The notes: generated from the letters alone by a model not told the origin. Positions 1 to 21,726 are shown, numbered from the stretch's first letter. The stretch is DNA of 28,572 nt from an uncultured Gammaproteobacteria bacterium (GCA_964434125.1 CAYSTF010000001.1:1-28572); one strand, 5' to 3'. Program-made: numbers and translations.

Positions 1-378
1 GCTGATACTTGTTGGGAAGAACAAGCCAAAAAGGCTGGATTTGATACCAACAAAATTACTGAGTGCTTCAACACTCAAGCAGCTGAGTTAATCGACAAAG
101 AAATTGCTCTAACCACTCAGTATAAAGTTCAAGGTTCTCCAACTTTAAAAATTAATAACGCGGATTTCCCACCAGAAGCCGCCTACACTTCTGACAACAA
201 AGGTAGTCTAAAAATTGGTAAAAAAGTCTTTACTCAAGACCAATACCGAACTTCAGAAGCTATCAAAGAAGCCATTTGTGCCTCGTTTAACAAAGCTCCA
301 AAGCAATGTAAAACAGTACTTGAAATGCCTAAAAACGAAAATGGTCAAGTTCAAGGTGCCGCTCAAGGCGGATGCTAA
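1..378 (+). CDS. 3' part of a DsbA/thioredoxin-fold-like protein (5' end outside window)
   Basis: Frame 1 is open from base 1 to TAA at 376-378 (ADTCWEEQAKKAGFD...YKVQGSPTLKIN...ICASFNKAPKQC...AAQGGC*). The V-x-G-S-P-T-L-x-I-N cis-Pro motif is typical of DsbA-like proteins. Followed by a terminator. Confidence 0.6.
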   Translation, partial: ADTCWEEQAKKAGFDTNKITECFNTQAAELIDKEIALTTQYKVQGSPTLKINNADFPPEAAYTSDNKGSLKIGKKVFTQDQYRTSEAIKEAICASFNKAPKQCKTVLEMPKNENGQVQGAAQGGC

Positions 379-393
379 TTCATTTTAAAACTC

Positions 394-430
394 AAAACCC
401 CTCCCAAATTAAAAGGAGGGGTTTTTGTTT
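394..430 (+). terminator. Rho-independent terminator
   Basis: Stem AAAACCCCTCC (394-404) / GGAGGGGTTTT (415-425) with a T-rich tail, 15 nt after the stop codon. Confidence 0.85.
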
Positions 431-552
431 GGTAAAATACCATCATCACAAAATAATTAATTTGCCTTAAAGATAAAAAATATTTTTTAGCTTACATAAA
501 ATCTTGTAAAGCAAATTCACATCTAATGAAAATAATTTATTTTTTTAATCTA

Positions 553-768
553 GTGAAACTCAATTCACATCAGATCCGAAAAAATTTTAATTTTATTTCT
601 TTATTATCTTTCATATGAAACTCAATTCACACCAAATCAGAAAAAATTTTAATTTTATTTCTTTTTTATCTTTCATATGAAACCCAATGCACACCAGATC
701 CGAAAAAATGTTAATTTTATTTCTTTTTTGTTTTTCTTATGAGATTAAATTCACATCAAATTCGAAAG
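553..768 (+). repeat. Three tandem 62-bp repeats plus a partial fourth copy forming the first 10 codons of the SpoU gene
   Basis: Units begin at 553 (GTG), 615 (ATG), 677 (ATG) and 739 (ATG of the CDS), an exact 62-bp period. Consensus is close to ATGAAACTCAATTCACAYCARATCMGAAAAAATTTTAATTTTATTTCTTTTTTATCTTTCAT. A degenerate fragment (AATTCACATC) lies at 514-523. Confidence 0.95.
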
Positions 769-1278
769 AGTAGGGAAGTGGATGCCAAAAAATTACAAAC
801 CGAAATCAAACGTAACCCTTTAGTTTTAGTTTTAGACAACGTCTTAGACACCTACAATATTGGCTCTTTTTTTAGGTTAGCCGATGCTCTTGGTGCCCAA
901 AAAATTTATCTTTGTGGTCCCATTGTCACTCCACCAAACATAAAAATACACCGTTCATCAATTGGCACCTGGAAATGGATACCTTGGGAGCAATTCGACT
1001 CAACTGTTGAATGTCTCCAACACCTAAAATCACAAAAGTATCAAATAATCGCCTGTGAGCAAGACAAAACCAGTGTCAATTATAAAAAGGCTACATATAC
1101 TACCCCTATCGCTCTAATCGCTGGTAGTGAATCTAACGGTGTTTCTCCCCAAGCTTTAAAAATGGTCGATCAAATAGTTGAAATCCCTATGTATGGGATA
1201 AATGTTTCGTTAAACGTTTTAGTTGCAACTGCAATAATTGGGTACGATATTCTTTCAAAAATATTGCCCGAAAATTAG
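739..1278 (+). CDS. SpoU/TrmH-family RNA 2'-O-methyltransferase (SPOUT)
   Basis: Motifs LVLDNV-DTYNIGSFFRLADALG, LIAGSESNGVS and IPMYGINVSLNV match SpoU motifs 1-3. Substrate cannot be determined from sequence. Confidence 0.9.
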   Translation: MRLNSHQIRKSREVDAKKLQTEIKRNPLVLVLDNVLDTYNIGSFFRLADALGAQKIYLCGPIVTPPNIKIHRSSIGTWKWIPWEQFDSTVECLQHLKSQKYQIIACEQDKTSVNYKKATYTTPIALIAGSESNGVSPQALKMVDQIVEIPMYGINVSLNVLVATAIIGYDILSKILPEN

Positions 1279-11017: not shown

Positions 11018-11809
11018 CTAGCGCCAGCTAGTGGTCATTAATATTCCTAAAACAACAGAGAAAGTAATCCAAATAAATGTTATCCAATTTTTTTTAAACA
11101 ATCGACTTCTTAATTCCAATTGAATTAAACTAGCAACAATATATACAAAAGCCACCAAATAAATTGATCCCTTAAAAATGCCAACTGGCCAAAAAGAAAA
11201 AACCAATCCAAGCTGAGCTATTAAAAATGATGGGATTAAAACATAAGCCCAAAAGTTTTTCTCCTTACCATCATCTGCCAACTCTATAGTAACACTATAA
11301 AAAATATACATAAAAATTACTACCGATACTAAAAACACATAAATCGTATTTAACCAATAAATTAATTTAAAGGAAAACAGACTGTCGAACAAAAAAAAAG
11401 CGGTTATCAACACAATCATAAAACCAACAGTAAACGCTGCCCTATACAAAGGCGGTGTTCTGTTTCCAATAGCTACTAAAAATAAGTTTTCTACTAGAAA
11501 AGTAACATAAGCCATTACCCCAAAAAATAAACTAGTTAAAAATACTGTCAAAAAATTTTGTGGTAATAGAGCAGCAAACAATCCGAACCCCACAAAAAAA
11601 CCAACAGGCAAAACTACTGACATTAATCTTATATATAGACTTTGGCTAAAGATGATTCCTAATCCAAACCAAAAACAAAAAGCCACCAATACAATCCCAA
11701 CCAACAATCCGTAATAATGTGAAGAATAAGGTAAATTAACAAACAAATAAAACCCTACTGATGCCACCAAAGAGGAAATAAAATATCTAATTTTTTTAGG
11801 CATAATCAA
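11018..11809 (-). CDS. Conserved-looking integral membrane protein, unknown function
   Basis: About 8-9 hydrophobic segments; start overlaps the yebC stop (an ATG at 11803 is an alternative start); codon bias matches neighbours. Confidence 0.75.
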   Translation of the reverse strand: MIMPKKIRYFISSLVASVGFYLFVNLPYSSHYYGLLVGIVLVAFCFWFGLGIIFSQSLYIRLMSVVLPVGFFVGFGLFAALLPQNFLTVFLTSLFFGVMAYVTFLVENLFLVAIGNRTPPLYRAAFTVGFMIVLITAFFLFDSLFSFKLIYWLNTIYVFLVSVVIFMYIFYSVTIELADDGKEKNFWAYVLIPSFLIAQLGLVFSFWPVGIFKGSIYLVAFVYIVASLIQLELRSRLFKKNWITFIWITFSVVLGILMTTSWR

Positions 11810-14347: not shown

Positions 14348-14702
14348 ACGTAGTTGCCAAGGGATTAATTGCTAACCTATCAGTATCAATCATTTTTCCA
14401 CAACTTTCACACAACCCATATTTACCGATTTTGATTCTAGTTAGCGCCTTTCTTAGTTGTACAATCCTTTTATTCAAAAATTTTGCTTTAACTTCAGTTT
14501 CAAAATGATCAATTTGTTCGTCCAAATCCTCTTCAAGTGAATTTTCTAATACTCTATTAGAATCCAAAAAGGGATCAGCCTTCTTTAAGTTTTTCTTAGC
14601 TCGTTTAGATTTTAACAATTCAGCCTCTAAAAAACGCCTAATTGGCGATAATAACCTTTGAGGAAAACTTATTTTAAATTTTTCTTGATTTTCTTGTTTC
14701 AT
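14316..14702 (-). CDS. DksA/TraR C4-type zinc-finger protein
   Basis: Coiled-coil followed by YGLCESCGKMIDTDRL...ATTCVKC. Confidence 0.9.
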   Translation of the reverse strand: MKQENQEKFKISFPQRLLSPIRRFLEAELLKSKRAKKNLKKADPFLDSNRVLENSLEEDLDEQIDHFETEVKAKFLNKRIVQLRKALTRIKIGKYGLCESCGKMIDTDRLAINPLATTCVKCQKEKEA

Positions 14703-20668: not shown

Positions 20669-20932
20669 ATGAAACAAGGAATTCATCCAAAATATTACAG
20701 CGATTGTCAAGTTAGTTGTGCTTGTGGTAACAAATTTACCACTGGTTCAACTATCGAAAAAATCGAAGTTGACGTTTGCTCAAAATGTCATCCCTTTTTT
20801 ACCGGTCAACAAAAATTTGTTGATATTAAAGGAAGAATAGATAAATTTAAAGAAAAAGTTGCCAAAGGTAAAGCCACCGCTGAAGCAAAAGATATTAAAT
20901 CTAAAGAAAAAAAATCAAAAAAATCAAACTAG
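20669..20932 (+). CDS. rpmE: 50S ribosomal protein L31 (Zn-binding type)
   Basis: [16 protein letters not shown] and [10 protein letters not shown] motifs. Confidence 0.97.
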
Positions 20933-21018: not shown

Positions 21019-21726
21019 ATGCCCACAATAAACCCCAACATAGCCATTATGGAATTTTACCCAGGTCCTGGTGGTCAAGAGGCCACTATTTGGTCAAATG
21101 ATCTAATGAATATGTATATTCGATACGCCAATAAAGTCGGCTGGAAAGTAAGCCAGATTGACGATCATGTTATTCAAATTTCAGGGTTTGATTCTTATAA
21201 TCAGCTTAAGTATGAAGCTGGTACCCACCGAGTTCAGCGAATTCCAATTACCGAAAAAAGAGGCCGAATCCAAACATCTACAGCCTCTATTGCTATTATG
21301 CCCCAAATTGAATCGAAGGAAGTAAATTTTAGTATGGACGATGTTGTTATTACTGCCTGTCGTGCCGGTGGTAATGGTGGTCAAAATGTAAATAAAGTTT
21401 CTACCGCAGTCCACTTAGTTCACCAGCCGACCGGATTGACCTTTGATGTTCGGACTGAGCGTTATCAACAAAAAAATAGAGAAATTGCTCTAAAACTTTT
21501 ACAAAATAAATTATGGCAAATAGAAGAAGAAAAACGAGCTGTTCAGGTTGCCGGAGGTCGCTCAAATATTAGTCAATCTACCAGGGCAGATAAAATTCGT
21601 ACATATAATTATCCCCGAAATCAAATAAAAGATCATAGGATTGACAAATCATTTAATAATCTTGACGAAGTAATGCAAGGGCACCTTGACGATATTTTGT
21701 TAGAATTAACGACTCTTGAAAACTAA
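21019..21726 (+). CDS. prfA: Peptide chain release factor 1, short form lacking N-terminal domain 1
   Basis: [19 protein letters not shown] (PxT, RF1-type), GGQNVNK and IRTYN motifs; rpmE-prfA synteny; only 235 aa. Confidence 0.85.

Follow-up and report, generated by a model that had tools for sequence, protein, structure and literature searches.

The erm genes (ermC, ermB), which code for rRNA methyltransferases, are controlled by leader-peptide translational attenuation. The locus described here resembles them in having a short ORF directly before an RNA methyltransferase gene, but it lacks alternative stem-loops, a sequestered RBS, a conserved stalling motif and a conserved leader peptide, and its enzyme is a housekeeping-type member of the SpoU/TrmH family. 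A U-rich leader with a small ORF rich in Phe codons is also found in the pheA/pheST, trp, his and pyrBI attenuators; unlike these, the present leader has no terminator/antiterminator hairpins.

Reinitiation at overlapping stop and start codons in the absence of an SD sequence is established in E. coli and in RNA phage systems. As at operon AUGA/UGAUG junctions and in the coat-lysis coupling of RNA phage GA (PMC2268962, PMC9955659), the stop codon of each ORF in the array overlaps the next start codon and a downstream SD is absent. The array differs from these cases in that its upstream ORFs, instead of being genes, repeat the first codons of the downstream gene in series, in that three or four of them are chained within a 5′ leader, and in that the dependence of the downstream gene (trmH) on them is only putative. 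SD-poor bacteria such as the mycobacteria (PMC4633059, PMC3898074; 70S scanning and leaderless initiation are reviewed in PMC9031893) offer another parallel, the genome described here being likewise dominated by leaderless or short-leader mRNAs and having short uORFs that begin at the 5′ end or close to it; in four of the related loci examined below (L101, L096, L040 and L147) the pseudo-start occupies the place expected of a leaderless AUG. Unlike uORFs of the mycobacterial type, those described here arose by duplication of the start of the main ORF, and a conserved regulatory peptide (e.g. Cys-rich) is absent. Finally, the constant period, the lineage-variable copy number and the mosaic unit types, which suggest unequal exchange, are those of loci evolving by slipped-strand mispairing or unequal crossing-over. 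Unlike in contingency loci, the unit is long (62 bp), the copies are diverged, the copy number is stable in four assemblies and nothing points to phase variation. The array is unusual but explicable as a tandem duplication that created coupled uORFs.

RESULTS

The start region of a SpoU/TrmH-family gene is repeated in tandem

The window (the whole stretch of DNA analysed, 28,572 nt) contains, in this order, a DsbA-like gene, a terminator, a promoter, the array, a gene of the trmH family, gyrB, gyrA and, on the opposite strand, an xerC/D-like integrase gene (Table 1). The gene downstream of the array had been recognized as SpoU in an earlier note made from the sequence, and its product indeed covered the full SpoU_methylase profile (PF00588, E=5e-36). 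It scored below the NCBIfam cut-offs for the RlmB (Gm2251; 104.6 versus 160 bits) and TrmH (Gm18; 95 versus 227 bits) equivalogs. A search returned 3642 homologues, the nearest of them from Candidatus Shapirobacteria (CPR, Microgenomates), the group to which the source of the window also belongs. Genetic code 25 (TGA = Gly) was considered and rejected, since TGA ends four of the 27 genes in the window and is a genuine stop. A replication origin or DnaA-box cluster was likewise rejected, the cumulative GC skew being monotonic over the window and the best match to a DnaA box in the units, on inspection, being 6/9. Elsewhere in the window, a release factor gene (21019-21726; rpmE lies at 20669-20932) codes for only 235 aa. 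Its RF1 match (262 bits, below the equivalog cut-off) starts at about profile position 106, which indicates that the N-terminal domain is missing; an in-frame upstream extension was looked for and not found.

Table 1. Features of the array and its surroundings (positions in the window)
Feature	Position	Strand	Description	Basis
DsbA-like gene	1-378		upstream of the array	
Intrinsic terminator of the DsbA-like gene	398..426	+	CCCCTCCC..GGAGGGG, then T-run	
Extended -10 promoter TGGTAAAAT (predicted)	430..438	+	conserved; predicted transcription start near 445	
Unit -1	about 442..505	+	oldest copy, heavily decayed; no AUG; weakest assignment of all parts	alignment by eye
Unit 0	506..552	+	decayed copy, 47 nt; ORF-dead in the unit frame (VKQIHI, then two stops); holds ATG 526	
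First ORF of the chain	526..618	+	30 codons; in frame through GTG 553 and unit 1; TGA overlaps ATG 615	
Unit 1	553..614	+	GTG start; X type A	TRF and alignment
Unit 2	615..676	+	mini-ORF 615..680, 21 codons; X type A	
Unit 3	677..738	+	mini-ORF 677..742, 21 codons; X type B	
SpoU/TrmH-family RNA 2′-O-methyltransferase gene	739..1278	+	179 aa; first 29 nt are a partial fourth repeat	

TRF detected a single array at 554-767, with a period of 62, 3.5 copies, 86% matches and 0% indels. Three 62-bp units lie head to tail at 553-738, and a partial fourth copy (739-767) lies inside the gene. Each unit comprises the start codon and the first 9–10 codons of the gene, plus a U-rich segment of about 32 nt, here called X. 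TRF and the listing of ORFs thus confirmed the central observation of the earlier note, namely tandem copies of the 5′ end of the methyltransferase gene chained by ATGA overlaps (615-618, 677-680 and 739-742). Its count of three units holds for the intact ones but missed two further, decayed copies at about 442-552, and of its three 21-codon ORFs only the second and third stand as described, since the reading frame of unit 1 extends back to ATG 526, the first AUG downstream of the conserved promoter. Unit -1 was aligned with the ancestral start region and with the other units, and is near-identical in a related lineage (L085, see below); the decayed unit 0 contains AATTCACATCTAATG at 514. Given a period of 62 (2 mod 3) and ATGA as the first letters of the gene, duplication produces the stop/start overlap automatically. 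The units abut directly, with no unique spacers (TRF, alignment); they do not form a CRISPR array, as had been noted before, and the constant period, the head-to-tail arrangement, the copy number that varies among relatives and the decay of older copies are those of a tandem duplication. Unit 3 alone has acquired, by substitution, ATGs at 687 and 708 that are out of frame and whose ORFs extend beyond the trmH start; the one from 687 (687-773) runs for 28 codons, past that start.

A 20-mer from the X half occurs three times in the window, against 0.12 expected. The possibility that X is a dispersed or mobile element was rejected: X motifs were found nowhere in the window or the 181 fetched loci except upstream of the trmH-family gene, and viral contigs gave no exact match. 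By eye, X matches the upstream promoter at 13/17 positions, which is suggestive as to its source. A 14-mer of the units, AAAAATTTTAATTT, recurs once in the window, at 1304-1317, where it follows the trmH stop by 26 nt; it may be either a clue to where X came from or a coincidence, and it was not reproducible in other lineages. On the minus strand, the unit junctions (590-619 and 652-681) carry the promoter-like motif TTCATA-18-TAAAAT (9/12), and the scan also reported the terminator hairpin, whose architecture is equal in relatives, on that strand. An antisense transcript of the leader is therefore conceivable.

Copies of the module differ in number, register and decay among related loci

About 180 related loci were gathered (181 fetched). 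No copy was present in about 130 of 142 unique loci, while the other relatives carry one or several. In the nearest repeat-free relatives (83–87% protein identity) the terminator is followed by TGATAAAAT, 12 nt and the ATG, a layout indicating that the array (about 300 nt) was inserted between a conserved promoter and the start codon. A comparison of orthologous loci for repeat number and ATGA overlap had been proposed earlier; copy number does vary (0, 1 or several), but the overlap is retained only in the clade of the window.

This clade comprises five lineages: the window, L085, L176, L181 and L180. The window has two decayed and three intact units, L085, L176 and L181 have two decayed and one intact unit each, and L180 has three decayed and one intact. 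In L085, L176 and L181 a 1-nt indel gives rise to a 9-codon ORF whose TGA overlaps the GTG (GTGA), whereas in the window the two frames are fused. The ORF of the proximal unit is intact in all five lineages, and in all five a chain of ORFs, each overlapping the next by its stop codon, runs without a break from the first leader AUG to the AUG of trmH, in spite of the differences in copy number and the indel. This continuity could derive from shared ancestry plus chance, since two of the three frames give continuity at the GTGA.

The X segments fall into two types. That of unit 3 (type B) differs from X of the gene-proximal unit of L180 at one of 32 nt, while those of units 1 and 2 (type A) differ from X of the L085 unit at one or two of 32 (one in the case of unit 2). 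The 4-fold sites of flanking genes show only 54–62% identity between the window and these lineages. The matching of two X types across lineages shows that the units are older than the lineage splits. The gene-derived (5′) halves differ within the clade at 4–8 of 30 positions. The region 442-552, which holds the decayed copies, differs from that of L085 at three of 89 A/T sites, compared with 99 of 233 4-fold sites (p=1e-13); the distal and middle parts of the L180 leader are highly diverged. L181 (SRR29243430) is a mosaic: its SpoU gene is L085-like (64/66 4-fold sites identical), while it equals the window in the 5′ end of gyrB (39/39 4-fold sites) and in the intergenic region before it. This shows recombination between co-occurring lineages, and the conservation of the leader could in part be gene flow. 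The trmH-gyrB intergenic region (1279-1480) is also conserved, with 93% identity to L085 versus about 55% at 4-fold sites; it includes a promoter-like block, TTGCTTATTGTAAAGCTATTT..GCTCTGTTAGAATGAAT at 1361-1389, that all ten lineages inspected have kept.

Outside the clade, L004 (duplicate L088), L094, L096, L086, L101, L040, L147 and L155 have a homologous module before the gene, with a pseudo-start, an A-run and a T-rich X. X is identical at 19/19 positions in L004, L094 and L096, and the leaders of these outside lineages are 76–84% identical, compared with 40–51% at 4-fold sites. The distance of the upstream copy from the -10 box is the ancestral one, so that this copy is the original start and the segment consisting of X and a new start lies downstream of it. 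Its start codon has been lost in L094 (ATG to ATA) and in L004 (ATG to ACA). In L096 its ORF ends at codon 7, with the stop 40 nt short of the main AUG, while in L040 the uORF overlaps the gene out of frame. The uORFs range from 6 to 29 codons among lineages (16, 19, 24 and 29 outside the clade), and outside the clade their stops lie anywhere from 40 nt upstream of the gene to 35 nt inside it. On an NJ tree of the 180-aa trmH-family protein, itself weak, the module is distributed patchily. This could reflect many losses, which recombination between direct repeats would make easy, or several gains or transfers; the tree is too weak to separate these options.

Insertions of other kinds were seen at or near the same place. 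In the close relatives L164/L165/L166 and L084/L168/L177 the interval between promoter and start holds insertions unrelated to the module, namely a GC-rich, hairpin-containing 88-nt leader and a block of GGCCAA repeats/‘GCCTCTGGCTGAG’; this interval is a general insertion hot spot. L009 (about 1941-2040) and L140 (about 2001-2060) carry an in-frame insertion in the SpoU N-terminus, at the same hot spot, giving 200-aa proteins; in L009 the insertion contains a GC-rich palindrome, GGCCTGCCTGCCGGCAGGCAGG, and behind it another KLNS-like segment. A further inserted element, made of two hairpins (CTCCC..GGGAG-AT-GTCCC..GGGAC, then AGARRGGTTT), occurs in the trmH leaders of L179 (about 205-270) and L112 (about 1950-2000), and also in the gyrB leader of L004/L088 (L004, about 1550-1600); it has no Rfam match.

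Translation in this genome appears to start without SD sequences

An SD-like motif precedes only three of the 27 genes in the window, and none was found before any unit or before trmH. By comparison, an extended -10 box ends 3–16 nt before the start codon in eight of the 27 genes (0.66 expected), the motif TGnTAnnnT being enriched 12-fold at this distance in the window. Extended -10 boxes so near to starts imply that promoter-proximal genes are leaderless or nearly so. Genes internal to operons are tightly coupled, by 4-nt overlaps or gaps of 3–8 nt; two other gene pairs of the window overlap by 4 nt (11806-11809 and 14699-14702).

In 55 distinct gyrB leaders of relatives AUG was depleted about 6-fold, with six occurrences compared with 38.9 +/- 5.9 in shuffles; triplets of the same composition occurred 13–60 times. 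This suggests that ribosomes probably start at AUGs of unstructured leaders, in which case extra AUGs there would not be innocuous.

DISCUSSION

A start-module duplication that may relay ribosomes

The reading to which we give a probability of about 0.55 is that the array is a tandemly amplified start module of trmH whose mini-ORFs relay ribosomes to that gene, with selection acting on the nucleotides of X and not on the peptides. The 62-bp module would have been amplified by slippage or unequal recombination within a roughly 290-nt unstructured leader that lacks SD sequences and is probably transcribed from the predicted extended -10 at 430-438. Each young copy would bring with it the initiation region of the gene and so become a translatable mini-ORF, and the register would place the stop of every mini-ORF on the next start codon. 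Ribosomes would enter at AUG 526 and, through termination and reinitiation at 615 and 677, arrive at the trmH AUG (739). It is this passage of ribosomes that, as proposed, would make the duplications tolerable. The lack of SD sites, the mostly leaderless mRNAs and the AUG-depleted gyrB leaders of relatives suggest that the mini-ORFs are probably translated. Selection would act on X as the initiation region of the gene, and perhaps also on compatibility with the relay, while older, promoter-proximal copies would lose their AUG and decay to plain leader.

Several observations weigh against a relay. It is apparently not strictly needed, since gyrB of the window and trmH of L094, L004 and L086 have SD-less leaders of 60–105 nt that are free of uORFs and seem to be translated. 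Unit 3 holds the two out-of-frame AUGs described above, which an optimized relay should avoid. The uORFs of L096 and L040 do not fit it either, the first ending well before the gene and the second overlapping it out of frame. Moreover, the integrity of the ORFs is statistically unremarkable: in a neutral simulation with the observed number of substitutions, all three remained intact with a probability of 0.29.

This last result is also part of the case for an effectively neutral repeat, which we regard as possible though not favoured: slippage duplications of the promoter-proximal region would have had no effect on the expression of TrmH, the ORFs, overlaps and silent differences would be by-products, and the copies would simply decay. 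The stop/start overlap comes for free from the period and the ATGA start, distal copies are decayed in every lineage, most of the unique loci have no copy at all and the middle of the L180 leader is strongly diverged. The synonymous excess reported in the earlier note points the same way, being non-significant within the window, where changes between units comprise five synonymous and six non-synonymous ones (22% synonymous expected; p=0.08–0.17). On the other hand, X is near-invariant between lineages whose synonymous sites are saturated, the leader at 442-552 differs from that of L085 far less than 4-fold sites do, and the depletion of AUGs in leaders implies that added AUGs are not neutral.

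An adaptive variant of the preferred reading would have the conserved pseudo-start and U-rich X form a dedicated, SD-independent landing and relay leader for ribosomes in CPR bacteria dominated by leaderless mRNAs, amplified in a register that forces stop/start overlap so as to tune, in an evolvable manner, the translation of the trmH-family gene, or to rescue it after displacement from the promoter, with a copy number that is adaptive and not the result of drift. This is a tentative proposal. A copy number acting as a rheostat, as suggested earlier, is unsupported: the intact units number three in one lineage and one in others, yet the four assemblies of the strain agree.

It is rather unlikely that the module works at the DNA level, with a promoter and/or operator in each copy, so that the array multiplies sites and X serves as the promoter of a short-leader trmH mRNA. 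The parts would be a -35-like TTCACA (codons 4–6), an A-rich spacer of 16–18 nt and a -10-like TTTAAT/TAATTT in X. Conservation of X at the nucleotide level is in keeping with this, as is the finding, on inspection, of a -10-like hexamer 4–9 nt before the ATG in many lineages (TATTAT+5 in L101, TAAATT+5 in L155, TTTAAT+7 in L096 and L086), a geometry that would suit leaderless mRNAs. The scan also gave a match, TTCACA-16-TATTTT at 516-543, that ends 9 nt before GTG 553; a T to G change specific to unit 3 makes TGTTAATTT, extended -10-like, at 709-717, 21 nt before the trmH ATG; and the 62-bp spacing is about six helical turns. However, most of these candidate -10s lack the -11 A or the TG typical of promoters in this genome, hexamers of this kind are frequent in AT-rich sequence, the scan passed no plus-strand promoter within a unit, and no dyad symmetry is conserved across lineages. 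Further, all long-leader lineages have preserved the upstream extended -10 despite saturating divergence, and this speaks for transcription of the module as leader.

The earlier note had proposed that the peptides, or their translation, are under selection, either as regulatory leader peptides that sense tRNA or rRNA modification or as a cassette of small amphipathic peptides; a sensing of Phe-tRNA supply may be considered along with the first. That translation matters is plausible in an SD-less genome of leaderless type. Selection on the peptides themselves is not supported, and they are best seen as by-products; the model as a whole appears very improbable. In its favour are the short ORFs before an RNA methyltransferase gene, reminiscent of erm, a tail rich in Phe, Ile and Leu, and the proximal unit ORF kept in the whole clade. 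The synonymous bias also reaches significance when the L085 unit is added (8 S:8 N, p=0.015), but all of the excess comes from the gene-derived half (6 S:4 N, p=0.016), the X half showing 2 S:4 N. Where a unit differs silently from the gene, this is uninformative about the unit, because the gene side has been filtered by purifying selection on TrmH. In addition, the silent states seen in units are those of the real genes of relatives, as would be expected if units were re-copied or converted from the gene. Such conversion is a plausible source of the silent differences, although only one site covaries clearly (L180 has AAC in both unit and gene).

K-L-N-S is near-invariant in more than 100 orthologues, yet its residues are replaced in the units (L to P and S to A in unit 3, L to F and K to I in L085, K to I in L180). 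Conservation of the X half extends to all codon positions, silent sites included, with no codon pattern, which indicates a constraint on nucleotides and not on the peptide; in the distal copies and in those of L094, L004 and L096, starts were lost or stops gained while the nucleotides were kept, and uORF length, frame and stop position differ between lineages. That the tail is rich in Phe follows trivially from translating a T-rich tract. As for amphipathic peptides, the hydrophobic stretch of the tail (FNFISFLSFI) has 10–11 residues, short of the about 18–20 of a membrane span.

A multi-stage leader-peptide sensor would require alternative RNA structures, and none was predicted. The leader (442-800) folded no more stably than shuffles (z = -0.94), and nine single modules showed no excess stability (units -2 to -7.6 kcal/mol, |z| <= 1.5). 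In these folds of leader and units no alternative hairpin sequestered the RBS or the start of the methyltransferase gene. A hairpin between the A-run and the U-run, with possible G-C covariation by eye, was considered and found unsupported by the fold energies. The scan found no terminator or antiterminator after a leader ORF, the only terminator-like site being that at 398-418, upstream of the array. No Rfam family, and thus no known leader, matched inside the array; of two sub-threshold hits, both outside it, the one to Phe_leader (22.5 versus 55 bits) lies on the opposite strand, at the upstream terminator.

Tandem repeats are prone to mis-assembly, but an artefact, already judged unlikely in the earlier note, can be dismissed here: the array is identical base for base and in copy number in three other independent assemblies (L001-L003), its units differ from one another at 5–9 of 62 positions (8–15%) and share, on reading the sequence, no 31-mer, so that they can be placed uniquely, and related arrays come from other projects (L085, L176, L180, L181).

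Significance

The geometry of the duplication and selection on the parent gene can between them yield intact ORFs, ATGA overlaps and silent differences without selection on any peptide, and this calls for caution with arrays of this kind. If the relay is real, the locus would be a natural case in which a duplicated initiation region has built a multi-step chain of coupled uORFs, in an organism that lacks SD sequences and is dominated by leaderless mRNAs. The CPR/Patescibacteria have reduced ribosomes. The findings bear on how start codons are chosen in this group, and the depletion of AUGs in leaders suggests a rule by which the first AUG on an unstructured leader is used. Start-codon choice in CPR bacteria without SD sequences is in our view a more valuable lead than the array itself.
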